In this document: in pieces, positions 2,742 through 45,166 of the stretch
Position numbering within the stretch: the first letter of the stretch is position 1
How the letters are laid out: every line of letters starts with the position of its first letter
Origin: Amphiscolops sp. MND2022
Lineage: Eukaryota
NCBI GenBank assembly: GCA_964187785.1
Contig: OZ076409.1
Coordinates: forward strand, 40,178,001-40,242,000
Direction: 5' to 3'
Length of the DNA: 64,000 nt
The notes under the pieces: generated by a model
What the model was told of the DNA's origin: nothing
The model's input: only the letters and a program-made list of their open reading frames with translations
Database searches by the model: none
Program-made: the position numbers and the translations under genes

Positions 2742-2929
2742 TTTTTTGTCTTGTGATTAGTTCAGATAACAAACAAACTGAATTTTAGTTTTCACGTTTT
2801 TGAATTAAATTCATTTTCAAATTAGATATGTTTCTGGAATTGTTACGTTGCTGGAATAAAAAATTTTCGAGGACTGAATGTGCTCGCGGAGTCGTTACGT
2901 TGTTTGTAAAGGAGTTGTTGGCTTAAAAA

Positions 2930-8870: not shown

Positions 8871-8995
8871 GGAACTGGTGAAACTGAATAGTTATTTGAA
8901 AACTTTTCAAATTTGAACATTTTAAATTATTACAGACGGACGTTACATGCCTCATACGGAGAAAAATGTTAAAAACTGGTCCTTTTCTTCTTCTT

Positions 8996-11900: not shown

Positions 11901-12224
11901 TGTCGGAAACAAATCTACGCCCATCAGTTCAATGATGAGTTCCCTTCGAGCATTTGTCCCTGGGAGATTTTTCCCACCACTCAGAACGATCAGTTTCATC
12001 GTATGTGCCTCAATGAAAACCGAGTGTTTCTTCTGAGTGTCTTTTTTCCATTTAATGATGAGATCTTCGGATTTTAACGAGGTTCCACAAATGACATGAT
12101 TTGTCAATTTTGAAGCTCCTTGATATTTGTTAGTCTCATTAACTAGGGAAATTTTTTCTATCAGGTTATAATCAATATATTGAATAATGTTTATTACTAA
12201 TGAATTCTCGTTCCAAAGCTCCAT
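8996..12224 (-). CDS. RAG1/Transib-like DDE transposase with C-terminal BRCT-like domain (copy A)
   Basis: Exon 12224-11180, intron 11179-10883 (G|GTAAGT...TTTAG|CG), exon 10882-8996 with two -1 slips in homopolymers (about 9505 and 9215). Motifs in RAG1 order: PSYRAV, IDLWGDG (first D), QSSSITFCFSAFRGKD, SGDNPFL (second D), MPDVTH, SLSGTSA, LTPYKLK..VPEI, CEAMEKSN (E). Then LLSGLRFHVVGHF..TITRLGGEV..FIKVTYIEDVEKKGCVLDPSEY (BRCT-like). Confidence 0.75.
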
Positions 12225-12693
12225 TCTGTTCGATTTTCAAAGTTGCTCAGATTCAATTCAATATGATGAGTGGATCAGTTGTTGTTGATTGATGTGTTGC
12301 TTTTTATGGCATTCTGTGATTACACATTATGTTGAAGGAGATTATAAGAATGTTGAATTTGAAGGAGAAAAAGAGTTCGACAGCTTGTCCTAATCCTAAA
12401 AGTGGGGACGAACGTTCAGCTTATCAGACAGACTCAGTTATTAACTAGATTTCATTTTGATTGAATATTGATATTGATGCGTGTAAAATTTGAGTCCCAC
12501 GCCTTCATTCTAAGTTTGAGCTTACCGTCGAGTATACTTCGAGTGAGACTCAATTTTACTCTCAGTGTAAGACTCAAATTTTACACGCAGTTTTTAAAAC
12601 TTCTCAAGGCGTATCATTTGACTTTGAATTTCGCTAGTTTGCACTATCAACAATTCAGCTTCCCACATTGCAATTCAGTGTTCAATTTTCACA
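12225..12693. promoter_or_regulatory. Probable bidirectional promoter between transposase A and partner A
   Basis: Head-to-head ATGs at 12224 (-) and 12694 (+). The same arrangement recurs at 41238-41719. Inferred from position only. Confidence 0.45.
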
Positions 12694-23082: not shown

Positions 23083-25994
23083 TCAAGATTGAAAGTCTTT
23101 CAACAAGCTTCTTTTTTCTTCGAGTTCGAGTGAACTCGGGCTTAGCAATTGAAGTTTGGCTAACGGGTAAAAATACATATGCCAGGATACCAATATTAAC
23201 ACAGCTACTGCTAGCATGCCCGCATGGAAGCCAATGTAGCCTGAAAGAATTCCACCGAATACATAGGCTCCAATAACGCGCCCAAAGTTGTAAGTAAACA
23301 TCAACAAGTTAGTCGTTGTCAATCGAACATTGTCTAGCTCTCTGAAACCCTCCAGTAGAGCAATTTTTTCGATAATCCTGAACGCTGGAACGAATGCAGC
23401 TGCGACGTGACAAAAGCCCTCATAACCCAGGAGTAACAAAATAGTATAAGGGGATTGTAGCATTGGCATCAAACTCACACATGATAAAGCAACGTATCCC
23501 GCAGAAGCGAGCGGTGTAAAAATGAGAGAAGAGTGGGGTGAGTAGCCTTTGTCGCCCAGAAATCCAACCAGGAAAGCACCCAGTGTGTAAGTAGAACCAA
23601 AACAGAGGAAGTAGTAACCACTGAGCTCGCTGCCAATTCCCAATTTTTCCTGCAGGAAAGAAGCTAAGGTGACGCTGATGCACCCAGAAGCAGCCGCCAT
23701 TGTCAGGGTGGGAATACAGGCACAAACTATAGTGGGAGTGCGACAAAATGACGTCAGCGAGCAATTTGTCGAGTCTGAGTCATTTGCAGGGTTGAACAAA
23801 TTGTGTTTTTTAAAACTCGAACTTTTTTATTTTTTGATTTTGAAACTACGTTAGTCTTGAACGTTTATTCGCAACCGTCTTTTGCAATCATTCACAATTA
23901 TTCACTGTTCATTCGCAAGTCAACAAACAAGGCAAAACGAATTACAGTGCCTCACGAAAGTGTAACAATAGATAGGCATATTTCTAATAAAGGGTATTTT
24001 AGTTCATAGACAAATGTTATGTTAGAAACAACCATATAATAAAACAACCATACTCTTCTCATGTTGTTTTCAATCACCGGAAGTTGTTTTTCTTCACGCT
24101 TTTTTCTGGTTGCACGTTGAATCATAAAACATTTATTGTTACAATTTCGTGTGCGCCATTACAAAAAGCAAAAACCACTTCCTACATTATTTCAACTGTT
24201 AAATTTCCGTTTACAATTTTCATTCTTTGTCACTCACAGTCTCTAATTACTTGTTTCTGTTATGAAAGTTATACCCATCTCAACCAAAACGCAGATTTTC
24301 GAGTATGTAGCGGAGGGTTTATCTACAAGGCAAATTGCCAAGAAGGTGCCATCTGTTAGTCATATGACGGTGACCCGATTGAGGAGCGAGCATTTCAATG
24401 GCCTTGCAAAACCAAAAGCAGGTCGTCCATCAAAATTAACTCCATATGACAAAAGAAAACTCGTCCGAGACATGTCGTCAGGAAGGATACAAACAGCTGT
24501 TGATGCGGCTAAAGAGCTCTCAAATACAATGGAAACACAATTGCACCCTGAAGCTATCCGGCGAGTATTGAGGAAAAGTGGTTTGAAAGCAATCAAGAAA
24601 AAGAAGAAACCTTTCTTGAGTAGAAAACACAGACAACAAAGATTGGAATTCGCACGGAAGTATTCCAACTGGACACCAGAAGATTTCAAGCGTGTCATAT
24701 GGTCTGATGAAACCAAAATAAACAGATTTGGTTCCGATGGGCTCCAGTGGGTGTGGAAAAAGCCTAAAGCACCATTATTGGACTGCCACGTGCAGGGTAC
24801 GTTTAAACACGGAGGTGGAAGCCTGATGCTATGGGGATGTATGACTTCTTTGGGAATTGGTCAGGCGTGAGCTGTGGGAACGGGTGCAAGACGAGTGGAA
24901 CAAAATACCAGTTGAGACAGTTCAAAACCTTATCGATAGTATGCCCAAGCGCATAAACGCTGTTTTGAAGGCTCGGGGTGGTTATACTAAATACTGAAAC
25001 ACTGTTCCTGTTCTTATATTCTGTTTTTTTAAGTGTATAAAAACGTTTATTCAAATTCATTTTCTAAAACATAACCACACACGAAATTGTAACAATACAA
25101 TTTTTCAGTAGAGTGCTTGTGAATACATGTAAAAAACTCGAAAATATAAACCAAAACAATATACATTAATGCAACGTGTTTAACAAACATATTGAAAGCT
25201 TACTTAGTTTAAATGCTGTACCCTTCTGAGAGAAAAAGAAGATCTCACTTTTTTAAAAGTCTATTGTTACAATTTCGTTAGGCACTGTACATAGCGCTTC
25301 AAAAGCTAAATTATGAAATTTTATTTGGCCTAACGCCAACAGTTAAACACAAAAACTCTCGAGTCTTTTCTTGCTAACCCTGTCCTCTTTCTTTTGGAGT
25401 ATCTTGCCTATTGTTCCTAGCTGCGCTTACCAGAGGCGCAGCGGACACTACAGTAATTATGAATTCTACGGATCCCACTAGCGTGAAAGGAAGTAAGAAT
25501 CCTCCTATAGAATACAGCATACTTCCGACAGCAGGTCCAATCAACAAACCTGCTCCCATAGAGGCTTCTAACAAACTGGTGACTTTGGCTTCTCTGCCGG
25601 GGAAGAAGTTAACAAAAATAGGGTTGCCTGTGGTGAAAAGCATCGAAGCTCCGCACCCATTAATAACTTGTACGATGAGAAGTGCGGCTATGAGACAATG
25701 GCCCTCAAAAAGTAAAGGAACGTAGCCCAATAGAACACAAAAAGAAGCAGAAACTGACGCACCGATTAGGAAGATGTAAACTTGGTTGGAGGGAGTGAGG
25801 ATGAACGAAAGTGCGATGATTGCAACGAGCTTGGCCAGGTCGAAGGCTACCATTATGATTGAGACCAATTGAAGGCTCAAACCATTCGCCATGGCCTCGT
25901 TTGGGAAAAATGGGGCCAGCAACGAGGAGTTCATGCCTTTTCCAAAGAAAAGACCAGCTGCCATGAATAATAGCCAGTAATTAGTTCCCTCCAT
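23083..25994 (-). CDS. MFS transporter, SLC18B1-like (probable host gene)
   Basis: Two hydrophobic multi-TM halves (ORFs 25374-25994 and 23083-23799). Motifs SLLAPFFPNEA and GAGLLIGPAVGSMLYSIGGFLLPF match the SLC18B1 subfamily. Probable donor G|GTTAG near 25379; acceptor not pinned down. Confidence 0.8.
23945..25287 (+). mobile_element. Tc1-family transposon, internally deleted, IR/DR-type ends
   Basis: TA|CAGTGCCTCACGAAAGTGTAACAATAGA ... TCTATTGTTACAATTTCGTTAGGCACTG|TA. Inner copies of the same motif lie near 24133 and 25078. Confidence 0.95.
24262..24990 (+). pseudogene. Tc1 transposase, truncated
   Basis: HTH, GRPSKL, KKPFLS, WSDETK and KHGGGSLMLWGCM are present. The sequence then jumps out of frame to the C-terminal ELWERVQDEW..SMPKRINAVLKARGGYTKY, so the second D and the E are deleted. 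Confidence 0.92.
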
Positions 25995-28724
25995 GAGGCT
26001 GTTATCAATTTGTCAAATTACTTAAGCAGATGCTTAACACACAAAGGTGTAAACTTTGTTATTGAAGAGAAAAAGTCCAAAGAAAAACCATCCGAAGCCA
26101 ATTGGAAGAAAACTCGTTTACACTTGGCGTCCTTTCAGGTTGGTCTTCATCATTACCAATCGCTAGACCAGTAGCAGAAAGCAGAAAGCTTCGCTTCTCA
26201 CGTGCATTCATGATATTCTGGACGTTATCGGCAGTCTTATGTTTTGAACGTCATTTCCTTGGACTTTTTTTACTCTTACTTATTCTCATAGAGTGAAGGT
26301 TGATACTGAAAGAGTGTGAAAAAGGTTGAACATTTTGGACGTAAATAACTAATGTGTACTTTGAATATAATGGCAATAATAGAAACTGATGTCATCACAG
26401 TACATTTCAACTTGTTTAGCTGAAGAATGTCATGAGGAAGATTAATTTGTAATGTCAGGAAGTGAGACTTATGAGCTTCACAAACAGAACCTCAAAATCT
26501 TAGTCAAGAAAACAGTGCGTACGATAATGCACTTTGAGGACTAATAAGACTAGCAAAAGTCCATGGTACCTGCTACCAAGAAAAAATTAGTCATCCAAAA
26601 GCTGTAATCAAGACAGTTAATCAATCAGATCCAATTATACGCATGATAAATTCCCTATATGTACTCTTTTTGTAACGACCGGCTAGCGACGAATGAGGCT
26701 ACAAAACCCTTTAAAACCAGTTGCGGATAGGCCGGATTGACTTTTTCAATAGGTATAATCAAAATACAAGGTGTACACTGTTTGAAACCGTCTATTTCTG
26801 GGTCTAGACCCCGGAAGCATGCAGAAAACGCTGTAAAAACGCTAATACAAAGACCAAAGGGCTAGAAAAAGATAATAAAAATAATCTAGGACCCTCTGAA
26901 AAACTTCTCCTAGATCCAGACCTAACATGGCCGGAAAGCAGGAGTTGCTCCTAGTTAGACGTAAAAATAAAAAATATCACTCTGTGGTCGCCATAAAAAC
27001 TATTCCAGATGTAACGACCGGCTAGCGACGCACATCTACGAAGAGGGACAACATTACAGTGGGGTAACCGGCAACGAAAATGCAGATTTTACTCGTTGTG
27101 CGGCTCGGAAAGCAATGGACATGCATGAATGTATGGGCCAAAAATGCCTATTCGTTTCGCAGCCAAAACTGCTGCCTATTGATTTCCGAGGCAGCACAAG
27201 CTACGTATTGAGTTTCTTTGCAGGAGCGATGGCTTTAATTGCCCATGCATACTCGTTGATGAGTGTAAATCGGGCAAGTAATTCCATCGCTTTCGCAAAG
27301 AAACTCAATATTTAGATAGATCTGCCACTCGCTTCGGCCAATTCAATACATTGCTTTGACATGGAAGTGTCTCAATATTTATATACACATGCAGATTTTC
27401 AGTGTTCAGTTTTTGTTTTATCAAATTAATTCAGGAATATTTTTTGACTAAGAAATATCAGCTCAACTACTATTTTCCCAGTAATTTAGGCGGGACAATT
27501 GAAATTGGCAATGACGAAAATCTTCGTTCCGAAGCCGATATCTGCAGGAATATAACCTTAATAATATTTTCGCTTCGGCCAATCACTGCAAGATTATTAT
27601 CGTGATAAATTTTAGTTTACTCTATTTTAATACTGTTTAATACTTAACTATTCTTTTTTTGTATATAATGGTAATTATGATCGGGCAATTATGATAATTA
27701 CAAATATTTTGATGTATTTTGATGTGTAGGTATATTATGATGTGTTAGTATGTAATTTTGATGTTTGTTATTTTTTTGGAATTTATTAAATCAGTATTCG
27801 GTGAATCGTTTTTGTTTTAAGGCAAAAGAACAGTATATTTGATATATAATACGAGTTTAAGTTTTTTCAATCATAACGAAAAAATTGTTTGATAGTTGTA
27901 CACTTACTACAGAAACAACTTTATTCAACTATTCACCTTGATTGATATATATGTTTTTTTGATGTTTTTTGATGTTTATTAATTTAATTGGTATCCTGTG
28001 AATCGTCATTGATTTATTTATTGACAATTAATCTAATTATCAAAAATCAGGATTCTTTGTTTTGGGGCAAAAGAACAGTATAGTTGATAAATAATATGAA
28101 TTTGAGTTTTTCCAATCATAACAAAACAATTGATTTTTTGATATTTATTAATTGAGTTGGTATCCTGTGAATCGTCATTGATTTATTTATTGACAATTAA
28201 TCTAATGATTTTTCTGATATTCACCATTTTGTCAAAGTGTGAACGTTCTTATCAGTTGTTAAAGTCAACGCTCAAAGAAGTGGAATGTTACTAAAAGTTC
28301 AAAGTACTTTCACCTCCATTTCAGTGATTTAAGTGCACAAGTGAATCAGTAAGATTGTTGTAATACGGGAGCAAAAGTTTATTTGTTTTTCTGTTGATGA
28401 AACTACATGTAATCTTGATGTACGAAACCGAATACTCGCATTTGATTGGACAAAATTCTTTCGTCGCATATTCCGACGAGGTCATTTTGATACTGTGCGT
28501 GTAAAAGTTAGTCATTCGTTTTCATTTTTCTGCCATGTTAAAAACATTACTTTTTCGGATCCGTAAGCTGGACATTGAACTAGACGACTTACTGGACCAT
28601 TTGAAACAGGTTAGAGTTAATCAGTTGATTTATTAACTTTCAGGGTTGGCTTTTTAATACTTTGGTTTTAATAATTGTTTTCAATAATTTTCTTGATAAA
28701 CGTTCAACGTTTATTTCAACGTTC

Positions 28725-28873
28725 AACTCATTTCAATTTTGTGTTTTGAAACTAAGTTTTTTGTTGTTTGTTCCTTATGTTATTTAGGAAATCACCAAGT
28801 TGGTGATTTCCTAAATAACATAAGGAACAAACAACAAAAAACTTAGTTTCAAAACACAAACTTGAAATGAGTT
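28725..28873. repeat. Near-perfect palindrome, 74-bp arms, 1-nt loop
   Basis: Centre ATCACCAA-G-TTGGTGAT at 28799; one mismatch (28737/28861). Confidence 0.95.
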
Positions 28874-29035
28874 TCACTAAACATACAAATGAAATTGCTT
28901 ACGAAAGTTTTAGTGGTCAAAAGCATTCACAATTGATTCAATCTTATTTGAAACTAATTTCATTTTTGTGTTATTTCAGACAATTTTTCAACAAACTATG
29001 AGAATATCCGAATAATGCTTATATAGATGGTAGTA

Positions 29036-29465
29036 GGCGGATTCCCAAAGCGTCGAATATTCAAAGCGTCGAAATTAAACAAAAGTATTCATCGCATCGA
29101 AAAATAATTATTGAACGCTTCTGATTGGTTGAAAATTGAAATAGGAAAGAATTAATATTGTTGAATTTGTGTGCTACACAGCATCGAACTAATTACGATA
29201 ACGTAGTCAGCTATGTCCACATACTCCTAGTTCCCTAAATGCAGGAGCGAAGCGAAGCGGAGCGACGTGCCATGTGGTCATGCCTCAATGTTGCTACTTG
29301 GCGAAGGGAGCGAAGCGACCGAGCCATACAACAAATATGCTAACCTCTTCAAATAATAATCTGAAAAAAATCGCTGATATGGAATATTTCGACGCGATCA
29401 ATAACTAACTTTAATTTCGACGCTCTGAATACTTTTGTTTAATTTCGACTCAATGAATAGCCTCC
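29036..29465. mobile_element. MITE with imperfect TIRs and a 9-bp TSD-like flank
   Basis: GCGTCGAAATTAAACAAAAGTATTCA near the left end is inverted near the right end. Flanks are ATGGTAGTA and ATGGTGGTA. Confidence 0.65.
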
Positions 29466-30100
29466 ATGGTGGTACACTGTTATTCTAATCTCAGAAGTTT
29501 TGCACATTTGGTTGCAGAAATTCGGTTACGGATATCAAAACGTGCCCATGGATTCCCGAGTTTTGTAAGGCCTTGTCGGTTACCCCACTTTGATGCAATT
29601 TTGTTGTTCTTTTCAGCCCAAATTTAGGCCAAGCCTTCATAGAGAAGCCAGTTATACAAGTGCCAGTAACGAAGCAGTTCTCCAAGAACACTGCGGCTTT
29701 TCGACTGATAGAGATGAGCCAACCGTCTGTCAGAGTTAGTTTATTTTACCATGAACTTTTTGAAATCTTACATGTGTCTGTGTTTTGACTAATGCCCGCA
29801 GTTCATCAACCACTATTTGAATACATGAATAATAGAAAAACTAAATCCGAATGTTTCACATTTGACTACGTTGCTGCAGGAGACGAGGAAGTTGAGACCG
29901 ATGATGAACAAAGCACTATCCAGGAACACATTTTGACTAATAGGGATCAAATCAGCCTCCTCAACGATCCGACCGTCTGCCCCAGTTAGTTCTTTTATAT
30001 GATTACTTGAGAGTGTTAATCGATATCCGCTTTTTGGAATATCAATTGGCATTTTTTGAATTGAAAATTGACAAAGAAAACAAAACCCGAAGATAATATA

Positions 30101-30319
30101 CAGTAGTGATATTATTAAAAGCATCAAAAGGCAAATCTCCAAACGAATATCTCTAAAACGGCAGCGGTTTATAGAAACTGATAAAAACGAACGTTTCCTA
30201 GATTTTTCTCTAGTTTACAAATATGTTTGTTTGAAGATTTTTTCGAGAATACATGTTTCAGGATGACTTTGAAGTTTTTCTTTCCACCTGCTTTGTTGCT
30301 TTTAAAAATATCACCACTG
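30101..30319. mobile_element. Tc1/mariner-type MITE (TA TSD)
   Basis: TA|CAGTAGTGATATTATTAAAAGCA ... TGCTTTTAAAAATATCACCACTG|TA; same TIR as 37844-38158. Confidence 0.85.
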
Positions 30320-30394
30320 TATTTGACTAGATGACAATAACTAATATTCCAACCAGAAATTATTTAAAAACAAAGTTCGAGTTCATCAATGGTT

Positions 30395-32760
30395 TTACTC
30401 GGCATTACCGCCGAAAATTCTATTGGCTTCGGGATCCATGTATTCAAACATCAGCTGCTCTAGGGGTTCAATTTTCCGCTTTGCAATAAGTAGCACGTAA
30501 CGCGGATTATTTTTCAAGTATATACATTTCAATTCGACCAGTTTCATGTTGCAAGCTGGGTTGGTCTTTCCACCATCAAAGGTACTTGAGTAATTGCACA
30601 ATCGAGCAAGGCACCTTCTGCCATCGTTGTGGATGGGGCATATTTCTGAGGTTGCATCAATAATTCTTCCCGGCCTTGTTTTAACCTCGATGCAGTATTA
30701 TGGCTTGCGGTTCTCTGGGTCCAGACTGCAGTAGTAGTCGACATTGTTCGTGTTTCCTTCTACATGTCCGTGGTAGTCAAATATAACGTCATCCTTGTTA
30801 AATGGTTTGCTTGCGATTATTCCTCGACCCATTGTAGGATAGACAACATCGCAGACGCCTGGCCAGAATTGGTTTTCGCATCTATCTTTCAAGTCATCTT
30901 GGAAGTAAGGGGTATTGCAAAGTCTCCATTCTAGATTTGGATTGAATGCTTTCTTGCGCGAACTTTGTCGAGATCTTGATACCCCAGACATTCTAGAAGA
31001 AGCATCCACGACTCTCTTTACATCTGTGAAGTGGGGACAGTTGACCAAGTTTGCAAAATTGAATTTTCGCTCTCTTTCTTTCGCAGCGTCAGCTAGTGAT
31101 GTAGGGTAGTGGCTCTTGTATTCGGCCGCCCTAATATCAGCTCTTTGATGCCTAAGTGCTTGAATTCTTTTTTCGACTACTTTCATGACCGTTCTTTCAT
31201 CGTAATGTCCGCTGGGCCTCAAATGTTTTTTGACTTCCATCATCAGGTTCAGACCAAGATTCAGACCAAAATTCTTCTTCTGCTGAACATTTTGAAAGTG
31301 TCATCAGTTTGACAGTTCTTTCCAATCTGTCCATTTCACGTTCGGCTGGGTTTTTTGTCAAGTCGGAAAACTAGAACACGCAGATACTTAATGAAATAAG
31401 AGAAAACTGCAAAAGGAAGATGTTTCTAGTATTTCAACTTGTGATTATGGCTTATGATTACTATCGAATAATACAAATCAAACTGAATCAAGTAATTCTT
31501 ATCAAACAGTATTTGATTAGTTTCCTGTTCAATCCGATTTCTTACGTTCCGCACTTTGAATTGTGTTTTTCCCCAACTGTTGACGAAGAATGGCTCCGTC
31601 AAGACGTAATATGGTGGTATCCCTTGACTGGGTGACTGCATGAACCTTTTTTTCTGGTCGATGCCTTCAGGTTTTTATAAAGTACGGTCGTACAGCTTCA
31701 AAATATATTAACATTGCTTCTCCAACAATGTGAGGAATTCTGAAGCTGTCCAAGTACCCAGCTTCATCTTCAATTTGCAAGACTAACAAGTCACTTGAGT
31801 TAGAACTTCTATTGTTCTGAATTTGAGGGACCGTTTGCAAAACGGCATGAGTTGTGATGCTCAAAATGTTGCGATCTCTACACTTTGGAATAGAAAATTC
31901 CAGCGAATAAGCAATGAGGTCCCCAAACAAATTTTGTTTTGCCAATGCTGGTTAGAGATTTTGCGAATTTGAATTGCTTCATTATGTCATAAAGGTCTGA
32001 CAAGAGTCGCGCTTCAACTGTTGTGCATAATGTTAGGTGCACTGGGGTAATTTCTCGCAAATTTTTCTCATTATTTTTGGGAACACATCGTTTACTTTTT
32101 GGGCCATGGTTTTCCTCACCATAATGATTAAGTTTCCGCTTGTTCGCTATCTCCTGTTGGCATCTTTCCATCGTTGCCAAGGTGTCGCTGCAAGAACGGC
32201 TTAGCTGACTTGCCATGATGTCACTCGGAGTTTGGCTCAGTTGATTCGTCGTACTGTCACTCGGAGTGTGGCTCAGTTGATTCGTCGTACTGTCACTCGG
32301 AGTGTGGCTCAGTTGATTCATCGTACTGTCACTCGGAGTGTGGCTCAGTTGATTCGTCGTACTGTCACTCGGAGTGTGGCTCAGTTGATTCGTCGTACTG
32401 TCACTCGGAGTGTGGCTCAGTTGATTCGTCGTACTGTCACTCGGAGTGTGGCTCCGTTGATTCGTCGTACTGTCACTCGGTGTGTGGCTCAGTTGATTTG
32501 TCGTACTGTCATTACGGAGTGTGGCTCAGTTGATTTGCAGTGTTGATTAACAGAGGAGTCATTTGATTTGCAGCAAGTTGAGCTTGTACCATTATCGAGA
32601 CGTCTGAAGGGCTATCTTCATAATTCACATCCTCTATATTAGATATTTGTGAAAATATCCTTTGTTCAACTTGGGTGAAACTTGGCCAGCTTATAGACGA
32701 CACACTGGGTGATCCATACAACTGTTGTGTCGAACTAGATTGATTCAAGGGAGTACTCAT
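30395..32760 (-). CDS. SET-domain protein B (homolog of 368-2741), frameshifted, with one probable intron at about 31.37-31.55 kb
   Basis: RCENQFWPGVCDVVYPTMGRGIIASKPFNKDDVIFDYHG..RCLARLCNYS..CNMKLV..LIAKRKIEPLEQLMFEY assembled from ORFs 30698-31243 and 30395-30601. Ser/Gln-rich N-terminus. The canonical NH is NY here. Confidence 0.75.
32220..32535. repeat. 36-bp coding tandem repeat (NQLSHTPSDSTT, about 8.5 copies)
   Basis: Unit GTCACTCGGAGTGTGGCTCAGTTGATTCGTCGTACT repeated head to tail with no spacers. Confidence 0.95.
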
Positions 32761-33456
32761 GTACTATGCAATGATGCTTTCATTCGGTTTAAATGGAGTC
32801 GAAAAACTTTCAAACGTTTCGTTTGGAGCAACATAATTTGTCACAGCCGGGCTAGTCCCCAAGACAGTGTAAGAGAGGGCTTTCTCGTGTTGAGGAGGGT
32901 TCATCGTTATGTAATGAGATTGTTTTCTAGCTACTGTTTGGATTGAATGTGAGTGCTCAATCCTTTCCTTGATCGGTCAAAATTCGAACTAATTCAAATA
33001 CGCTTCGTCAATCAACTGTGGTATTTTATAATTAAAGAAAAATGGTGATCTTCGAATTAAATAGTACATATATGATAATTATTCATTTCTGATAATGAAA
33101 TATTTAATTATTGAAAGAAGGAGTACATACCGTTGGTAATAGTTTTGCGGATGTGCTATTTAGATTTGGATTAAGATGAGCTCATTTAAGGAGGCTTTTC
33201 GAATCAACTGTGGTGATAATTACTTGATGAAGTGCGAACCTTCAATTATCGTTTCAAAATAGGGGATAAAAACCGAAGTATGAAATAACTTAAGCTAATT
33301 GGCATAAAATGAATTCAACTTTCGCCCATCCGTTTCCGAGTTTGAATACAAGAAAAAGCCATGTATTTCTGAGTTTCAAATTGCCCATGCGTTTCCGAGT
33401 CTTAAATGGCGTTATCATCTTGATGATCTGTTGGGATATCTGAAAGAGAATTTAAA

Positions 33457-36400
33457 ATGTCGAAATTATTTCAAACATGTTTATCACCAATACTAAACGA
33501 AATATGTGTTTCAGAATGCCGGAGAAAATTCAGCGAAAAAGTTGCGTGCCAGAGGCACATGTACAAAGACTGGGCACCAAGGAAAAGACCTGTTGAAGAA
33601 CACCAGCTGGAGTTCACCTGTATTGCACAAAAAATTTACAGCCGGGCAAATTTTATTTGTCGTTTTTGTGAATGTGGCGAGAAAGACAGAGGACCGTTCT
33701 TTAGCTATCATAGAACCGCTCAACACTCCCTCGGAAGAACTTGCACCCTGAAAGTGTTTGAGTTACAAAGGGAGGAATGGTATCCAGGAAATTTGTTGGA
33801 ACCAATACCAGAAAACATTGAGGAATTGTGCAAGGAAAGTTCTGCTTACGATGGCCTGAAGCAAAAATACAAATCGTTTTATCTTAAAGGAGAATCCGCT
33901 GTTCTTCAAATAAAGCCCAAAGGCAACGAACCAGGAGAGTACAGCTGGTCGGAAAAAAGACGACTGGAAGGGAAAGGCTATTCCCATTGCATCAAAGACC
34001 TGATGAAGATCAAAGGGTCGCCAAAGAAGAAGATCGAACATCCACGATGGCAAGCGAGGATAGCTTCGAAAAGAAGAAGACAACAGAGAAGGATGTCATG
34101 TCGGTACCGGCGAGTTCACATCGAACCAGATTCTGACAGCAATGAAGAAGCCTTCCAGGAAGAGAACCGTGAAGAAGACGAAAGTGAAGAAGAAGTAGAC
34201 AGGCACGTTCCCCAAGGTACAATAAAACCCTATTGTTTTACCTATATCAATATTTCTACATACCAATTTGACTACTTGCCAAACGATTCCACTGATACTT
34301 ATCGAAAATATTCGGAAAACATCCACCAATCATTGCAATATTTTTATCATGATATTGACAATTTTTGTTTCAGATTCCGACAGCAATCAAGAAGCCTTCC
34401 AGGAAGAGAACCGTGAAGAAGACGAAAGTGAAGAAGAAGAAGTAGACAGGCACGTTCCCCAAGGTACAATAAAATCCTATTGTTTTATTTATATCAATTT
34501 TTCGACATACCAGTTTGACTACTTGCCAAACGATTCCACTGATACTTTTCGAAAATACTCGGAAAACATCAACCAATCATTGTAATATTTTTATCATGAT
34601 ATTGACAATTTTTGTTTCAGATTCCGACAGCAATCAAGAAGCCTTCCAGGAAGAGAACCGTGAAGAAGACGAAAGTGAAGAAGAAGTAGACAGGCACGTT
34701 CCCCAAGGTACAATAAAATCCTATTGTTTTACCTATATCAATATTTCTACATACCAATTTGACTACTTGCCAAACGATTCCACTGATACTTATCGAAAAT
34801 ATTCGGAAAACATCCACCAATCATTGCAATATTTTTATCATGATATTGACAATTTTTGTTTCAGATTCCGACAGCAATCAAGAAGCCTTCCAGGAAGAGA
34901 ACCGTGAAGAAGACGAAAGTGAAGAAGAAGTAGACAGGCACGTTCCCCAAGGTACAATAAAATCCTATTGTTTTACTTATATCAATTTTTCGACATACCA
35001 GTTTGACTACTTGCCAAACGATTCGACTGATACTTATCAAAAATATTCGAAAAGCATCCACCAAACTTCTCAAAAACTTTATAATGATTTTGACGATTTT
35101 TGTTTCAGATTCCAACAGCTACGAACAGGTTCAAGCAGAAGATGAAGAAGTTTCTCTGGTTGCATTTGAGGATGAAGCAGAGCATCATGAGCTGCTGGAT
35201 GTAATCAGAGAATCTTCCGCTTCTGAGATGCGAGTTTGCTGCACCAATGTTACCAGCAGCGAAATAGAGGAGGAGCTGCAGCAGAAAAGAGCCTGTCTAG
35301 TTCGAGGACATATGGATGGCATAAAATTGCCCAACATTGACTTTGGAGCTCGGTGAAACATCTTCGAAGACTGCCTATACGGAGAAGATATACAATTCTC
35401 TGTCCGAATGTACAAACCTGTAAGTGTACGTTTTTGGCTTCGTCTTTTTAACTTCACCAATGAACCCCGAATAATAAAAAAATATTAGGGTTTTTGTATT
35501 TTAAAACCAAAATATTAGGTCTTCGAAGTGTATTCTTCTCTCATAAACAACACATGTCTATTTCAGCTGCAAAAACTCCTGTGTTTAACACTCTCTGGAA
35601 TAGATTTTGTAAATGCCATTGGGTTTGGAGCTATGAGCGGCCCAATGAATGTCCTCGATCTTTGCTCTAGTCTCACGAAGAACTTGCATTTCGATGTACC
35701 AAAGGCAGTTAAAGATCTTTCAGTGACTCATTTATTCAATTTTGAGCTGGAGCAAAATTGCTATATTCTTCTCAGTCAAAAAGGTTCCATTACACCTTGG
35801 CATGTTGACTACACGAATACCAGCGTCTTTTACCATCTTCTTTACGGTAGAAAAGAGTTTTTCATGATTCCTGGAACAGTTCGAAACCAAGAAATTCTGG
35901 AGAATTGGTGCATTGAGGCAACAAAACAAAATGTTTTCCTACCAAGTGACACCCACCTCCAAAGTCAAGTGTTTAAAATGACGATAACAGGCGGCAAGTC
36001 ATTAATCATGCCAGCAGGCATGATACATATGGTCAGAACCTGTGCGGACAGCGTGGCCGTGGAATTCAATTTTATCACCATATGTGAACTAGGTAATTAT
36101 GAAATTCAGTTTTCATATAATATTGTTTCTCAGTTGTTTGTTAGAAGAGATAAAAGGTAAAAAGCAAAAAAAAATCAAAAAAATCTTTATTTTTAAAATT
36201 AAAATAGGATTGAGTTAATTTTTCAAAAAAATCGGATTTTAATCATGTGTTCAAGGCAGTTTTACTATTGCTTGTGCATATATGTTTTTCGACACGACTT
36301 TGACTGTTTACCAGAGGGAACGGGACAATGATGAACCTCTTGGTAAAATGTTTCCCACATTTCTTATCGTTAATGACGAAAGTGTTACTAGAGAGTACCA

Positions 36401-36564
36401 TTGGGACCTGCAGGCTACTCAAATGGGAGTTTCTGGCCAAGGCACTAGATGTCCTCAGCTTCCATTCCAAAAATGACAGCCGATCCAAGAGCAATCGACG
36501 AAAGTTTGTGCAAACTATCAACCGGTACATGTTGTCAATTTCCCAAACAGGAACATATCATTAA
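33457..36564 (+). CDS. JmjC-domain histone demethylase-like protein (KDM2/KDM7-PHF8 type), multi-exon
   Basis: YILLSQKGSITPWHVDYTNTSVFYHLLYGRKEFFMIP..MPAGMIHMVRT..NF retains the HxD...H iron ligands and the T/K 2-oxoglutarate residues. Exons about 33457-34216, 34374-34463, 34621-34707, 34865-34951, 35109-35419, 35567-36092 and 36260-36564, with some frameshifts. Cys/His-rich N-terminus. Confidence 0.85.
34129..35110 (+). repeat. About 245-bp exon-plus-intron tandem repeat, 4 copies
   Basis: Repeated TTTCAG|ATTCCGACAGC...CCCCAAG|GTACAA; exons of 87-90 nt encode DSDSNQEAFQEENREEDESEEEVDRHVPQ. Confidence 0.92.
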
Positions 36565-37065
36565 GTCACTTATTTCAAATTGTTGACAAAAAACTCGGTC
36601 GAAACACTTTTTGGTCTCTTGGTTGATTAGTTCGTTGAAAACCATTTTCGAGATGAATTTTTTGTTGTACGTATTCTTAACCTTTATTATATTATTTTAT
36701 TTCATTGTATTAATATATATATCATTATTAAATCTGGAAACTTGTTTTCAGCGAAGTATTTCAGCACTTGATGTAATTCCACATTTTTCTGCAGTCCCCA
36801 AGGAGTGAAATCAAGCGAAGTTTACTGTAATACTTTACAATTATGAATTCCAATTCTTGGTCTTCGAAAGATTTGGTTTTATTCTGCCTTTTCTGTTTTT
36901 ATTTAGTATTTGGCGCTGCTACTTTTTGCTACGTCTTTATTTTGAATTTCTTAAGAACAATTCGAATGATTCAATTAAATTTTGACCATAAAACAGGTAA
37001 AAATAATTTATTATTGTTTAAATCAAAGTTTTCATGATTTATAAATTATGATTATCAAATGATTC

Positions 37066-40000
37066 TCAGTCTGAGGGGTCTGAGGATGATTCATCGTGTT
37101 CTTTCTGAGCGTCATTCATATTTTCTTGTTCACGCTTCTTCAGCATTTCTCGTCGTTTACGAAGTACCGATGTTATAGCTGAAAATGTGTTTTGTAGTTC
37201 GGGATTCCTCTGAAGAAGGAAAATTTTGCGATGATCACGAACAGAAGTTGATGGAATGTCTGGCCCTGGTTTGAACGCAAAAGACTCCACATCCAAAATT
37301 GTTGAAGTTTCGATACTTTTCAAAATACAGTCAACGGATAGAAACGTAAGTCCACGACTGGCCAAGTGTCGTAAAACGTAACTGGTTCGACTTGGTTCAT
37401 TTAGTTTTCTTTTTTTTGCATTTTCCTGTGGCCATAACTTTTGTCACTTGTGGCAAAGTTTCACACGACGTTGTTGCACTAATGAGATCTGTGTCATTTT
37501 GGAGAACCACGTAAATGTGTGGCAACTTGGAGTGTCTGGAGAGGAGAGTATTCTTTGCTGCTCGTTCTAGAACTTTCCCTCCCGCTTTTTTGATAACTTT
37601 TTTGAGGCACTCAGCGGGTCCAAGAGTTTTTCCATCTTGGTTTTCATGTTGAATTCGTTGCTCTTATTGAATTTCCCGTGCAGAAAGAATCTCGATCCTG
37701 GAGCAAACGGAATATTGTTTAGTTCTGTGGAAACAATTGGTTATATACCGAACTTCGAATATGTAACAACAGGTTTCTAAGGTGGTCCTTCCATTTGCCG
37801 AACGTGCATATTGCCGTATAATTCTAAGACGGCTTTGCATGTACAGTAGTGATATTATTAAAAACTTAGTATTATCGGAAAAGCCTAATTTTACAGCGTG
37901 TTTTCATTGAGACTTTCAAGTAATTTCTCAATCAAAACATATCAAGTGCTTCAGTTAAATCAGGGAGGTCAATTGAACATAAAATGTTTCAAAAATTTTG
38001 ATCAAAACTAAATCAAAAGTCAGAAAAACCTAAATATTTAAACTAGATAAAAATCCTAGAAATTTGTTCACGTTCATAATTTTTCAAAAATCACTGCTTT
38101 TTGATAGATATTCGATTTTAGAATTTGATTTTTGTTGTTTTTAATATTATCACTACTGTATTCAATTTTATTTGCTACGATCGTTCTGAACAGGTATGTA
38201 ATTGCATCATTCAAAACTCACTGTTGAGCGAAAAACTAATTGCAAATAATAAGTTGAAAACATAAAAATAAGTAGATTGAGATTGGATTTCTCTCTCCGC
38301 CAGAGAGAATTCGAATCTCAATCTACTCACTAATTGCCACAGTTGTTGAATGCGCGGTCGTCACCGGCAATCGACATCTATGGCAAGTAATATCCGCCAA
38401 TGGCTACCACACACAATACCAGACACAATACCAGCCACTGGCTACCGAAGGCTGCACCAACAGCTACGCAGAGAAGCGAACCTGTATACCAAGAGCGAAC
38501 GAGCGGCGGAACGACGGAGCGACACACGAAGTAACCACTACGCCAGTGGTACTTGAAATCTGTTGATGTTTTGAGGAAGTATTTCATCCGAGCAACTTAA
38601 GACTAATATTTGTCAACATGAACATTCAGCAAAACTCAAGTCAAACATTTATTCAACGATCCACTACATTTACTTCGGAGTCGCAAGAAAAGCAAAATTC
38701 ACACTATATTGTTGGTTTATCCAACTAAAATTCGCTAAATATATACCACTTAGGTTTCATAACCAAAAAAGCTGGACGTGGGCTTATAGGTACAAAAAAA
38801 TCCTTACCCAAGAAAAGGCGGGACTTCTCTCGAACTCTTCCAACGGGAATGATGGCTTTCTCAATTGGTCCCAGGGAGTCCAAAAAAGATAGGTTCACCT
38901 CTATGGGTTCATTAAAAAGCCCTTGATGGCAAAGTGAAAGCTGTTCGTCGATGGTGCCTTCCAAAGTCGAAAACCGGAGACCAGAACAGAAAGTGAAAAA
39001 CATTTCGAGAAACAACGGGTCGGCGTGTCGAACTGTCCCTCCCCCTCGCATGGTCTTTTGCTGAAAGTCTCTATGGACATGATGGTTTGATTTTTCGGGG
39101 CCTTCGCACAGGTGGTTAAAGGGTGATTCAATGTAGCCTCCTTCTAACAGCTGGGGAATCAGGCACAGTTTCAGTCTGTACGGTGTCAAACCTAGTTTCA
39201 CATCGAACAGTACAATCGAAATGTGATAGTGGATTTCTGACCAGTATTTATAGTCGGAAAAGTTCTGTTCTTCGAATTTCTTCTTCGTACTCATCAGCAC
39301 GGTAAGCTGATTTAGTGACTTTCTCCAGAGTTCAGCTGCAACCAAAAGTTTCATTTGACATGGGCTTTCGATATTTGTAAATGAATTGGGATGAAGATTT
39401 TTCAACACATTCATGCTTGCACTTTTTGTACCCGACAAGGCTCCAACAGTCTTGTTCTCGGAAAAAACTCCTTCGAACAGTTCATGCTGAACACCAGCCT
39501 CAGCAAACTCGTACATATCAGCAATGCCAGTGATAGCTTCTCTGCCACTAAGGGAAATGGGAGCACATTTTTTGTTGCGTTTGTCAATGTCAATTTCGAA
39601 GCCAGGCTCTTTCCAACCTCTCTCGGTCAAATTGCGCTGAAAATTTTCCCTAATATAATTAACTGTAGCTGAGTCATCTTCAGATTGGAGAATTTTCAAC
39701 TCCATGAACTTTCTAATGTCTCCCTCGACACACCTTGTTATCGCATGAGTGCCGTCGGGACAAACGCATCTGATGTCTGGCAAAAACGTCAAACTTTCAG
39801 GAGGAATGGTGGTTCGAAATGGTAGGGAACATCACCTCGATGTCCATTTTTTTCGTGCACGGTTTCTGGTTTAACTGAATTGTCATTCCCAAGATACATC
39901 TGCAATTTTGATGGATTTTCTTCACTCTCCATGTGATCAACAGAGGTTCCGATGAGAAGGCGATTTAGGAATGGTTGATCGCCACTGTATGTTAAAAGGA

Positions 40001-41237
40001 CTCCGGCGTCATGGAGTTGTTTCGTCTGCTGGTAAAGCCAAGAGGAATCTTGCTCACCTAGTTCTAGGTACCCGACATTTTGCTCTAGCAACCAACGACC
40101 GTCGTGACCTGTAAACACGTATTGTAAAATGTGCGAAGCTAACCTAGAGCTAAATTAAATTTTGGGATTCAGCAGGACAAAATAGCAGAACATACCTTGG
40201 AAAACAGCAAAAGAGAAGAGTGCATCTGATGACTGATTGCTGATAGATGTTCCTTCGAGAAAACGGAAGGCCATTCGAGTTTGATCCTTTTTTCCTATTT
40301 GAACACCATCTCCCCAAATATCAACTTTCAGACCTCGCAAATCAGTTCTTCCTTTGAACAGAATGAATGTCATGACTTTGATAGCACGTACAAGATCAAT
40401 TCTGAATCCCAAGAAAGTGTTTTTTGGTTTGAATAGGGATATAAACTTTGAAATTATCGGTTTCGACATCTCTTTGATCGCTGTATAACCAGGAATTAGT
40501 TGTTTTTGACCCAGTTCATCGACATGGAAAGTTTTTTTCAGCGTGTTGATCATATTTATCCAACTACCAGTTTTAGTACAGATAAATATTTCTGACTTCA
40601 GCTTTTCGTACAATAAATAGTTTGAAAAAACACCCTTAACCAGAGCCTTGGCTTCAAATTGATGCAGAGAGTTCTTCTGCGCTTTAGCATGAATCCGCTT
40701 TTGTTCTGTAGCTGCTAATGTTGCGAGAATTGTATGCATCTTCTGACTGAAACCTGATTCAGGTTGAGAAAACTGCTCCACTGGGATTGTTGGCATTGAA
40801 AGTGGATTGACAAAAGTTTGTGAGTCGGGAATTAGCTGCGGCGTATTTGGGAAAAAGTAGGACACGTATCTTCTTCGTAATTGTGTCCATGGAAACCCAC
40901 TTTGTAAACCACGAATAATTATTATTTGCAATATTCCAATGGCAACAAAGCAAGTTTTTCGTTTGTTTATTACACAATCTTCGAGTTTTAATTCAGTTCC
41001 TTCAATTACTATTTCGATCGCGCTTTTCAGTTTTCGCGATTTTTCTCTTAGAATATGCCCAGCAAAAACATCCAAAATTTTAGCATCCACAAAACATTTT
41101 CCATCAATTGTTTCAGTGTAATCGTACAGAAGCTTCTCGGGGTGTATTGTCATCCTGATTGTCGTACGTCGAACGTTTTTGGAAGTTAATCTAGTAGTTG
41201 TCTTTTCAAAAGCGTATTGACACTTTAACGTTTCCAC
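37066..41237 (-). CDS. RAG1/Transib-like DDE transposase with C-terminal BRCT-like domain (copy B)
   Basis: Exons about 41237-40196, 40108-38808 and 37697-37066 (introns G|GTATGT..ACAG and G|GTAAGG..CCAG). Motifs IPGYTAI, VDIWGDG, SGDQPFL, CPDGTH, SLSGREA, LTPYRLK..IPQL, CEGPEKSN. C-terminal RLFLGSRFFLHGKF..VIKKAGGKV..FLSVDCI aligns with copy A. Frameshifts near 39820, 37615 and 37410. Confidence 0.75.
37844..38158. mobile_element. Tc1/mariner-type MITE inside transposase B intron 2
   Basis: TA|CAGTAGTGATATTATTAAAAAC ... GTTTTTAATATTATCACTACTG|TA. Confidence 0.88.
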
Positions 41238-41719
41238 ACTATCGTTTCCATTCTTGAAATGCGTCCGCTGGTTGGCAAAGCGTTTGACAAAAAATTATAA
41301 AATGATCGTGTTACGTTTTTGATGTTCCGTGCTGAAATTATATCGGAAATAAATCGAGTAAATTAGCGTTTTCACACTCACGTGGATTTTGAAATGCGTC
41401 TGCTCGATCGATCGAAAAACGTTTGACAAAAAATTATAAAATTATCGTGCTACGTTTTTGATGTTCAGTGCAAAAGTGTCTGGAGGTTTATTGTCATTTA
41501 AAATGCGTCTGACAATTAATTATTATGCGTCTGACAATTAAAACTCATCTGTATGTAACGACTTGGGTCGATCAAACTCACTTGATAATCATTTGTCCCG
41601 ATAACGATTTTATTTGCTCAAACCTGCTTGATAAACATTAGTGGCAAATGCAATACTGAAAATACTCGTTTGAGAAAATAAACTTCTTGAAAAATAAAGC
41701 ACTAGTTTCATTAATTGAA

Positions 41720-43295
41720 ATGGATTTCATCAGTGTTTTTGATATGGAAGAGCAAGTTCAAGTTTTGGATCCTGCAACAAAAATTTGGGAAGATGCTTGC
41801 ATCATTGGGGTTGGGTTGGAAGGATCATTTGGAATCCGAGTTAAGTACCTCAATTGGCAAGATAAACTTGTGAAGCGATTCGGATCAGACAGAATTTAAG
41901 ATGTCCCCCAACACACCTCAAAATTGCTGGCCAGTTATAAAATGTATAGTACTACAAGATGTCCGCGGTCGCCGGAAATCCAAGAAGCCAGCAGAAACCG
42001 TTTTTGACATCCCCGACCCAAGAAAGCGCCAACTAGGGGACAAAATCTTTTTCACTGGGACATCCCGGAAATCACCAGCGGACATTCCTAGTTTAGAAGA
42101 AGTTAGAAAGGATGCCGAGGAGTCGAAGCTGCTGAACTCGGGTTATGTTGTCATGAATGACCCATTCCAGCAAAATATGGCTGTTTCCTTCGACGGGCGC
42201 ACAAAGGACATCCAGTTCATCGACTACGAACTAATTCGTCCGAAGAACTGGACTCATCCTGACACGAGGCAGCCTCCCGAGTTTGATTCGGAGCCCGAAG
42301 ATGACCTACCATCGCGGCAAAAAAAGAGAGTAGTAGAAACAGATGCAGAACCAGAACCCACTATAACTTCTCCTAGACAGAAAATTGATATTGCCGCATA
42401 TATTGCGAGTCTTGCCGAGAAAGACGAACTTCTGGACATTGTACCCTGCGAAAATGGTATTGCATCAGCAGGTATATGATCAATTTGATTAATACTAGTC
42501 TAACCTCTACTGTACTAAAAATAATCAAACTAAAAAACTGAAAGCAAGCTTTTTGCCACGAGCGTCCGCTCGAAAAATTTACATGCTTTTAGAAACTTTG
42601 TCGCATAAATCTTTCTCAAGTGGTTAATAAATTATTATTACTAAATGAAATTAAATATTCGCATTCTGTTATTAGGTGACCACGTTACGATAAACATTAG
42701 GAGAACGGTCTTCACGATGAAATTGGAGAAGATATGGTTCGACGTGGAGATGAAGAAGGCCATGGCGAAACTGGTCGAAGAAGAAGACAGATGCTATTCC
42801 ATCACTTACCCAGCTGTAAAGCTAGTGTTGACAGAAGCAAACTACATGAAGCAGAAAGCTCTGGACTTGTCCGCAGCTTGTTCACCTGTGAATAGAGCTT
42901 TTCATTACGTGTCAGCGCTGAAACGTTTGGTCGGGATATCCCAGTCGAAACGCACAATGATCAATCAAGACATTTGCTTGGTTGACGAAAATTCCAAGAA
43001 TATCTTTTTGATGGGTTCTGGACACCAAGTCAAATTTCATATAAATCCTGACTCAGAAAAGTTTCACAAAAATGCAGAATGGGACAGTACCCTAGGCCGA
43101 CAATGGGATATGCTCCCACCAATCTTCCCTAAAATTTTCTGCCACATTATCAAAAGCCTAAAATTTTCAATTAACAACGATTTTCTGCTAAAAACTGTGC
43201 GAGTATCTATCGATTGTTTCCAGGACAATTTAAATGGCGATGACGAAAATCGTCGTTCCGCAGCCAATAATTGCAGAAGTCAGTTTAGTTTTTAA
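41720..43295 (+). CDS. Transposase-partner protein B, N-terminal Tudor/Agenet-like domain
   Basis: FDMEEQVQVLDPATKIWEDACIIGV..IRVKYLNW; one slip near 41897; intron about 42472-42675 (G|GTATAT..TTAG|GT); collinear similarity to 12694-14211. Confidence 0.7.
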
Positions 43296-45166
43296 TTTAT
43301 TCATTTTTTGTATCCATTGCTATAACAATTGTGATATCTTTTCCATTATTTGTTTCCACTAATTGTTTCTTAATTGAATCAGTCTCCTGTGAATCTTTTT
43401 GTTTTCGATTTGGGGCAAAAGAACAGTAGTGGAGCGACATAGTAATAATTGACAAAATAATGCCATTAACCAATTGAGTCAAACAAAATGTAATGAGAAT
43501 TAAATTGTTCAAAAAGACAAGCCCCCAAAAAGATCTTATCATGCCATTCTAATCTTCTTGTAATCTCCTAATCTTCTTATGGTTGATATATAATATTAAT
43601 TTAGGATTGTTCAATTATAACAAAAGAGTTGTTCGATATTTGTAAAATTACTACAAAAACAACTTTATTCAAATATTCACTTTGATTGATATAAGATATG
43701 TTTAAGTTGATTCAACCAAAAACAAAAAAAAATTGTTTGATAGTTGTACATTTACTACAAAAACAACTTTTTTCAACTATTCACCCTATCAGTCGTTAAA
43801 TCAAACAGTTTTATCAGACAGATTGTTGCTGGATATAAGGTAGATTGATGAAAAATATGGAAGCTTGATAATCATTATTCAAATTTATTTCGAAAACAAA
43901 GTACCTGGGAATGGTTTTATTAAACTTCTGATAATCGGCAAATTCCTATTTTCAGTTGATTAGGTATATCTCGGACATTTTTTGATATGTATTAAAAGTT
44001 TCTATCAAATTAAAAGAACAAGAGACCGTTGTCCTACTACATCCCTAGACACTAGTTTTTGTTACCAGAATGGTCTCCTAGGAAGACTTTTCTTTCGTCA
44101 CAGGAGGCTCCTCTAGTTAGAGCTCCGAGGCGACGTGCCGCCACTCTCAAAGTCCGGACACGTCCCACAAGCCTGTAAAAACGAATCCTAAGGTTTCTAG
44201 CGTGTTCCCGTGCCTCCTACATACTTCCGAGGTCCAAAATGATATTTAGCTGGAATACATTAAATTTCGGAAGCAAGAATTAAAATGAAGACCTAGTTGG
44301 TCAAACATTATCTAAACTATCAGCAATTAGTGATAAAGCACGGGGATAAGCCCCAACAACATTACATTTTAGGGTGATGGTCAGTTTGGCTTCTGGCATG
44401 TTTCATCTTTGGGCATTCTCCCAGAGAGATGGCACATTCCGTCGGTTTTGGGTCTTTTGACATCACTTCATTTTTCTTTGCGTTTGTCTTCATCTTCTCT
44501 GACCTTCTTTTTCTTCTGTCGTTCTTTTTTACTCTGTCTCCGCATGGCTTCTTTTTTTGTTCGTTTTCCCGCACCTGCTAGGTCGGTCATCTTCTTCGTA
44601 CAATTTTGATAACGCACACTTCGAATTTTTCATCGAAATCTCGTCATGCCAGGCTGACGTTACATCCTCCCCGGGCCGTAGTTTGTCGTCCTCGGCAAAC
44701 GAGGGGATGCTTGTACCCAGAGGGTATCGGCGACCTTGAAGTCCACTTTAGCTTCAGGGCTGGGTTTCATCAGTATAGTATATTTATTTTTAGCATCTTT
44801 CTTTTTTGTATCAAGGCTAATTAATTCAAAAGGCACTTGATAAAATTGGACACATGGCAATCAGTTTAAGAAGTATTCTACAGTTTTCTCAGTCTAAGTT
44901 AAAATCTCTTTTCTAAAATGGGCCCCAGCGCGGCCAAAGTAAAACAACGGTTTGGTATTAGTAACAGCTATGAATTGTTAAATTTCAAACTTAAGCGGAA
45001 GAGCACCGACCTGGGACCCGCCCACTGGGCCAGAACAAACTAACTATTGCATGGATCATTTTAAAGAATAACACGAAACATGATGTATAGCACTGAATAA
45101 AGCAACACAAAGAGTTTTAATCGTAGAACGAACTTTCATCAGCACCTTTTGGTCAACCGAAGTTGG

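Follow-up and report, generated by a model that had tools for sequence, protein, structure and literature searches.

According to PMC12730594, the CMCT transposons comprise EnSpm/CACTA, Mirage, Chapaev, Transib, Plavaka, ESTA as well as Lanisha. Their termini are mostly CA..TG and their target duplications 2–5 bp long, and all CMCT lineages share the zinc motifs C(2)C and H(3-4)H with RAG1. The same paper gives the PlavakaB termini as CATCA..TGATG with 2–3-bp duplications, states that Plavaka transposases retain the zinc motifs, and describes ESTA elements with CAC ends and 2-bp duplications. For V(D)J RSSs, Transib and RAGL ends, PMC1131882, PMC7204232 and PMC8289069 report that CAC at positions 1–3 is invariant and is essential for ProtoRAG cleavage, and that these elements make 5-bp duplications. 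Since a preprint (10.64898/2026.08.26.747230) reports that even among Transib elements there are 3-bp duplications and TIR starts that vary, end features cannot classify an element alone.

We analyzed a window of 64,000 nucleotides of the Amphiscolops sp. MND2022 contig OZ076409.1, in which the initial annotation had proposed a 12-RSS-like transposon end of the Transib/ProtoRAG type inside an LTR. Our best reading, which we consider probable, is that element B, a non-autonomous cut-and-paste element of 2.5 kb, has its left end at position 27052 and inserted with a 3-bp CAA duplication, its transposase being most likely supplied by the family of the adjacent large element C. The features around the junctions are as follows.

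26692..27051, minus strand: piece of an LTR retrotransposon cut by B, made up of an LTR end (27010-27051) and then 5′ internal DNA, 98.6% identical to 50398-50757
27049..27051, plus strand: CAA belonging to the LTR, the left-hand copy of what is probably a 3-bp target duplication
27052..29595: element B, non-autonomous TIR element of 2544 bp with termini CAT..ATG
27052..27076, plus strand: left TIR, CATTACAGTGGGGTAACCGGCAACG, whose first base is also the first to differ from the LTR
29571..29595, minus strand: right TIR, CATCAAAGTGGGGTAACCGACAAGG, inverted partner of the left TIR
29596..29599, plus strand: CAA, right copy of the duplication, and T, one further base of the unoccupied LTR site
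29600..44015: element C, a defective large element between B and the remaining LTR, with boundaries placed from the LTR junctions
44016..44664, minus strand: rest of the same LTR, matching 50772-51422, with a purine tract beside it
44016-51422, minus strand: LTR element with an LTR at 50716-51422 (TGTAAC..GTTACA) and a putative primer site about 15 nt behind the LTR

The two LTR halves that meet the insertions, at 27051 and 44016, lie only 14 bp apart in the intact copy, and therefore all 17 kb between them sit inside one LTR; the 14 bp themselves (50758-50771) are accounted for by neither half. As the initial annotation had placed it, the breakpoint lies 3 nt before TACAGTG, with similarity to the intact LTR copy stopping at 27051, which corresponds to 50757. 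Element C begins 1 bp beyond the right CAA flank of B without ends of its own, and our search for a TIR of C found none. The internal ORFs of the LTR element (45167-48064) gave no Pfam match. At 26671-26693 a second 21-bp LTR end is fused directly to 5′ internal DNA, as if a tandem LTR element had lost nearly all of its second unit. To the right of B, on the plus strand of 29600-30000, there is a gene remnant with a pyrimidine tract resembling an intron end and two short exon-like pieces that end alike.

The initial annotation had seen no matching right TIR. One does exist: 27052-27076 has an inverted partner at 29595-29571 with 21 of 25 positions identical. The best pair in 200 shuffled windows reached 18/25, and among random 25-mers of the real, repeat-rich window 20 of 2000 reached at least 21, through true inverted repeats. 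Similarity between the TIRs starts at CAT on both ends, the preceding base differs and the LTR match stops one base earlier; the terminal sequence of B reads CATYAMAGTGGGGTAACCG. Because B contains no ORF of at least 100 aa and is matched by none of 245 proteins (tblastn, E ≤ 0.01), it is non-autonomous. These comparisons of sequence support 27052 as a true transposon end and B as something other than a TA-flanked Tc1 MITE. Everything said about the ends of B comes from one copy, which yields a candidate terminus and duplication length for the family. No further TIR copy was detected in the window with up to 8 mismatches of 25, and TIR pattern scans of genome contigs and viral contigs gave 0 matches. 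The pattern scan of metagenome contigs gave three matches, none extending beyond 19–22 bases and with 47–67% GC, which were taken as chance. An Rfam search of 26500-30200 gave no match. Internal duplications and at least two palindromic stretches were found inside B, and the second and third of the following are probably small elements nested in it.

27190..27326: stretch on B's left subterminal side that forms an imperfect palindrome
28725..28873: near-perfect palindrome belonging to a repeat with a further occurrence at 7264-7391
29058..29459: internal inverted repeat of a probable second small element

To place the ends we checked 12 boundary registers for exact duplications of 2–10 bp. Two of the 12 had one, namely CAT..ATG (CAA) and the register of the inner 7-mers (AT). 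CAT..ATG was the sole register with an exact duplication of at least 3 bp, and it requires no indel. To the right of B the flank reads CAAT, as does the unoccupied LTR site (GGA-CAA-T); from base composition the probability by chance is 1.6% for CAA and 0.5% for CAAT. We infer that CAA is probably a genuine 3-bp duplication, while noting that CAAT is followed by 14.4 kb of C instead of by the LTR, and that the two CAA could thus come from different events. No duplication of 5 bp or 8 bp was present at any of the 12 registers. Of the signs that the initial annotation had suggested looking for, the inverted partner is there and the 5-bp duplication is absent. Candidate Tc1, hAT and P-type registers were rejected on duplication. 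The P element has CAT termini and a 7–8-bp duplication; for a P-type 8-bp duplication at the CAT register, 0 of 8 bases match.

The intervening DNA leads to a composite origin as an alternative, in which B and C moved or were rearranged together, either by pairing of B's left end with a right end of C that has since been lost, or through a deletion next to B that rejoined its right end to C. The CAT terminus would then stand and the two CAA would be unrelated. We regard this as unlikely. It agrees with the 14-bp distance between the LTR halves in the intact copy, with the lack of both ends in C and with the intron-end-like DNA right of B, but the match of CAAT to the target would have to be due to chance or to target preference. 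A second alternative keeps the CAT..ATG ends with a Transib-type 5-bp duplication, CAATG, from which TG was lost on the left and of which the right copy was truncated when C arrived. CAATG is indeed the sequence of the unoccupied site, four of these five bases are still held by the right flank, and cCAWTGc and CARTG are reported as Transib targets in PMC1131882 and 10.64898/2026.08.26.747230, respectively. Yet an extra 2-bp deletion is needed here and none for the 3-bp duplication, which leaves the 5-bp version very unlikely. A TA-flanked Tc1/mariner MITE starting at 27057, which the initial annotation had named as one outcome that would overturn its proposal, has practically no probability in our judgment. 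TA-CAGTG is indeed how the Tc1-like element of the window (23943-25289) starts, but likeness to it stops after seven bases, the right end reads CACTT-TG and not CACTG-TA, which already refutes a MITE for this copy, and CAT/ATG would go unexplained. At register 27057/29590 we found neither the TA duplication nor the CAGTG at both ends that characterize Tc1/mariner elements. The preferred reading remains insertion of B, from CAT to ATG, with a 3-bp duplication.

We then compared the left end with the V(D)J signals it was said to resemble, using the following motifs.

27055..27061, plus strand: heptamer-like TACAGTG at TIR positions 4-10, with the counterpart CAAAGTG at 29592-29586
27074..27082, plus strand: nonamer-like ACGAAAATG, mostly outside the TIR, with no counterpart at the same place of the right end
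29558..29566, minus strand: A-rich box ACAAAACTC, matching the nonamer at 7/9, located 19 nt behind the inner 7-mer and 22 nt behind the terminal seven bases

The letters of the proposal are exact. TACAGTG matches CACAGTG at 6/7 positions, the spacer GGGTAACCGGCA (27062-27073) is exactly 12 nt long, and the nonamer-like box matches at 6/9 with AA at positions 5-6, so the left end has in common with a 12-RSS both boxes, the 12 ± 1 spacing and the AA. The reservations attached to it, that the first C is a T and that CAT precedes the motif, are likewise true of the left end. Such a pattern nevertheless occurs in the window at chance frequency. Heptamers of at least 6/7 with nonamers of at least 6/9 at spacer 12 number two, against 2.9 expected from 30 first-order Markov simulations; with spacers of 12 or 23 on both strands there are six, against 5.4 expected. 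A closer match lies at 52739-52766 (CACAATG with CAC intact, 12 nt, a 7/9 nonamer, three mismatches), where no element end was seen; 70 of 100 shuffles give at least one match as good, so that this site is at chance level.

The positions of the motif also differ from those of an RSS. CAC is absent from heptamer positions 1–3 at both ends (TAC left, CAA right), and the 7-mer is not at the cleavage border, as the LTR junction and the TIR similarity begin 3 nt outside it. No partner with a 23 ± 1 spacer exists, the best box of the right end being 19 nt behind the inner 7-mer. Counted from the actual termini the spacers are 15 (left) and 22 (right) and the terminal 7-mers match CACAGTG at 2/7, and no register gives a 12/23 pair. 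Because the 7-mer occupies TIR positions 4-10, CAC is lacking, the spacers are 12 and 19, and the pattern is at chance level, the readings as an RSS and as a canonical Transib/RAGL end both fail. The motif is an internal part of the TIR; a working V(D)J RSS or a canonical Transib/RAGL end is not supported, and the 12-nt spacing between the 7-mer and the A-rich box is most likely chance.

The presence of a heptamer-like 7-mer inside the TIR at both ends (TACAGTG, CAAAGTG) is not trivially chance. We roughly estimate from base composition that such inner 7-mers near a terminus arise in about 1 in 1000 cases, and since the element is linked to an enzyme of RAG1 fold, their presence is a coincidence that sits uneasily with our best reading and that we count against it. 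If the 7-mers were the true ends, descended from CACAGTG, the element would have an RSS-like Transib/RAG end and a 2-bp AT duplication. AT does flank both sides exactly and the right flank ATGC fits the unoccupied LTR site; the two 7-mers could go back to any of four ancestral sequences, CACAGTG among them, the linked transposase has the RAG1 fold (below), and ESTA elements with CAC ends and 2-bp duplications are described in PMC12730594. This register, however, requires that after insertion the left flank gained 2 bp and each CAC mutated once, yet the flank has diverged just 1.3–2.4% from the intact LTR element. It also meets the invariance of CAC in known RSS, Transib and RAGL ends, spacers of 12/19 instead of 12/23, and a repeated CAA that it leaves unexplained. 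We therefore consider it highly improbable. What stands of the original suggestion is that 27052 is a true transposon end linked to a RAG1/Transib-fold transposase family; the RSS register does not.

The link between B and this family comes from a segment shared with C, whose gene content and that of a second member of the family are given below.

27493..27956, plus strand: segment of B collinear with 43223-43785 of C (3′ end of ORF-B and downstream DNA), with patchy identity of 65–85%
42645..43295, plus strand: ORF-B of C, 216 aa, multi-copy, of no known family, with its last 24 codons opening the stretch in common with B
37066..41294, minus strand: transposase gene of C, in pieces, with intron(s) and one frameshift near 39820; RAG1/Transib-fold DDE core and C-terminal BRCT, with the fold taken from the relative P0046
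30395..31300, minus strand: SET-domain gene in pieces within C (weak Pfam matches, E 0.014 and 0.088; tblastx to 2289-2732), related to the SET gene 2079-2741
35519..36160, plus strand: JmjC-domain ORF within C (Pfam JmjC, E 4.7e-08)
1-15350: second, distant family member, with a transposase at 8999-12236 (minus strand), a SET gene at 1703-2741 and an ORF-B relative at 13673-14210

Collinearity extends across about 460 bp of the shared segment, which begins inside a gene, as internal deletions do. Its blocks have 76–85% identity with E down to 3e-33, and identity is 65% over the first 156 columns. The C-terminus of ORF-B is reached by five of six relatives and kept closely in four of the six, while one diverges and one ends earlier. 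Since relatives keep the C-terminus where the segment begins, the segment is native to the family of C. Both genes are multi-copy, with cluster sizes of 71 members for the transposase and 40 for ORF-B; among the 15 rows listed for each cluster, three values for the length of the longest contig recur in both, which suggests that transposase and ORF-B travel together. ORF-B had no ESM Atlas match. On sequence grounds, B is best read as an internally deleted, diverged non-autonomous relative of the family of C.

The patchy identity means that B could also have captured the segment. B would then belong to another TIR family, P-like or EnSpm-like, and hold merely a captured piece of C's family, which we find distinctly unlikely. 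C has no TIR for comparison, and most of B matches nothing in C: the left 440 bp and the tested parts of the right 1.3 kb gave no match in C or in the second family member of the window. The Drosophila P element, too, has CAT termini. Against this, no register has a duplication of 7–8 bp, the shared segment has the collinearity and the start within a gene described above, and no P or EnSpm transposase occurs among the 40 of 75 long window ORFs that were scanned. Descent of B from the family of C remains our preferred reading.

The second member has the same layout as C. Its SET gene matches Pfam SET with an E of 1.8e-12 at 2079-2738, and its ORF-B relative is 26% identical over 69 aa. Our search for its ends, from window position 1 to about 15 kb, could not locate them. 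A GGAGTCGTTAC motif and several tandem arrays recur through this member (1-15350). In both members an ORF-A (41720-42479 and 12628-13353) lies head to head with the transposase; its N-terminus suggested by eye a chromo-barrel/Tudor domain, an assignment that Pfam, PDB and pairwise tests left without support. A small element with TACAGTAGTGATATT-type ends occurs twice in C (30098-30332 and 37842-38161), one copy lying in the last intron or break of the transposase gene. Tandem arrays are present in C as well, with a 36-bp unit at 32147-32547 and a unit of about 245 bp at 34127-35161, the latter built of exon-intron units. No RAG2/kelch gene was matched among the 40 of 75 scanned long ORFs of the window, in which C is incomplete.

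Relatives of the transposase numbered 38 by word search and 437 representatives by profile (E ≤ 0.001), and scans of viral and prokaryotic contigs with the transposase alignment and for related loci confirmed none. The fold was modelled on the fuller relative P0046 instead of the broken gene of the window, to a piece of which it is 37% identical over 304 aa; the model input consisted of 39 rows chosen for length out of 181 proteins. The model reached a pLDDT of 85.6. Foldseek matched it to RAG1 (E 4e-7), HzTransib (2e-6), the P element (7e-5) and Hermes (2e-4). With VIA-align, RAG1 structures gave Z 17–19, the best being 19.2 (rmsd 3.6, 376 aligned), and the RAG1 superpositions had rmsd 3.6–4.5 over about 380–400 residues; Z was up to 17.6 for HzTransib, 17.0 for BbRAGL, 12.5–12.6 for the P element and 7.8 for Hermes. 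Alignments of the full P0046 model to mouse RAG1 begin at residue 479 or later. Residues 663-791 of P0046 match BRCT domains with Z up to 10.9. An earlier model of P0008 (pLDDT 63.7) found RAG1 at an E of 0.03 only. Independently, the nearest named clusters in the ESM Atlas were RAG1 (0.94; 168 of 256 features, just under the guide of 170).

In the alignment columns the first D is present in 19/19 rows, the second D in 31/32, DxxH in 39/39 and two E in 38/38. The zinc motifs are nearly absent, with CxxC in 1/32 rows and H(3-4)H in 0/38. Pfam recognized BRCT only (BRCT_2 in 16 of the 39 members, E ≤ 1); at this cutoff not one member matched a transposase family of Pfam, although the RAG1 models of the Atlas may postdate this Pfam copy. 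Sequence-profile searches of PDB returned no transposase. The modelled transposase of this family is thus predicted to fold like RAG1/Transib, to end in a BRCT domain and to be without the C(2)C and H(3-4)H zinc motifs.

With the Transib/RAGL/ProtoRAG/RAG1 core (PDB 6pqx, 6b40, 4wwx, 6xny), the family of C shares the fold, the order D, D, DxxH, E and a near-terminal heptamer-like 7-mer. It differs in that B ends in CAT at both ends and not in CAC, carries the 7-mer 3 bp inside and has a probable 3-bp rather than 5-bp duplication; the RAG1-core fold and DDE triad belong to the linked family and not to B itself. The transposase further differs from Transib and RAG1 by its missing zinc motifs and added C-terminal BRCT, by an identity of 10–14% and, among the 40 of 75 long ORFs scanned, by the lack of a visible RAG2-like partner. 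C is also at least 14 kb long, whereas Transib measures 3–4 kb according to PMC1131882. B and C agree with the CMCT description in the CA..TG ends (CAT..ATG), a duplication within 2–5 bp (CAA) and a RAG1-like DDE core, and large multi-gene elements with chromatin-related cargo occur there too (TET/JBP in fungi), as in C. With PlavakaB in particular, a fungal CMCT lineage, B compares as CATTA..TGATG with CAA, exact at the right end and 4/5 at the left end relative to CATCA..TGATG. What differs from PlavakaB is that the zinc motifs kept by Plavaka transposases are missing and that the named relatives of the C family are animal (P0171, from a sea cucumber; one of ten proteins looked up was named, and the Atlas clusters are mostly from Cnidaria). 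The ends of B are thus best read as resembling the CMCT type with PlavakaB-like features. Because the enzyme lacks the zinc motifs although B's ends fit the CMCT description, we do not file it in any named lineage. In the literature outside Repbase Reports and most subscription journals, we found no description of this RAG1-fold/BRCT/SET/JmjC transposon family.

We infer that the family of C moved B. A DDE transposase would act in trans, binding the 25-bp imperfect TIRs, cutting outside the terminal CAT and joining B to the LTR at a stagger of 3 bp (CAA). The trans supplier would be the multi-copy family of the adjacent C, whose enzyme has the RAG1/Transib fold, lacks a C2H2 zinc site and carries BRCT at its C-terminus, and B would have arisen by internal deletion and divergence from that family. 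By analogy with RAG1/Transib, the transposase would first nick the DNA and then leave the flanks as hairpins. Proteins of break repair may be recruited through the BRCT, and silencing of the element may be countered by the SET and JmjC genes. That these two genes are cargo is suggested by their position, as SET lies near the transposase in two of two window members and JmjC in one of two. A bolder version, which we hold to be unlikely, is that large transposons of RAG1 fold form an animal lineage not yet described, in which the zinc site was lost, the BRCT was gained and SET/JmjC chromatin genes are carried. Such a lineage would have kept the RAG-type heptamer (from a CATCACAGTG ancestor) but would cut 3 bp farther out, staggered by 3 bp, and its A-rich boxes would be asymmetric (12 and 19 nt); the cleavage register would thus have shifted naturally against the heptamer.

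For a RAG1-fold transposase without the zinc module, the family of C provides a candidate end sequence and duplication length. As the module is thought common to the RAG1/Transib/CACTA clade, a family that dispenses with it shows what in the RAG1 architecture transposition can do without, and the BRCT fusion suggests a direct coupling of cutting to host break repair. If the inner heptamer were conserved across the family, it would offer a natural test of heptamer recognition versus cut position.

Two other mobile elements were seen in the window. The Tc1-like element at 23943-25289 has a 30-bp TIR starting with TACAGTG and an HTH_Tnp_Tc3_2 domain, and lies between two exons of an MFS transporter. 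A Gypsy-type pol with RT, RNase H and integrase occupies 59578-62990 on the minus strand, beside unnamed long ORFs at 56220-59295 on the plus strand.
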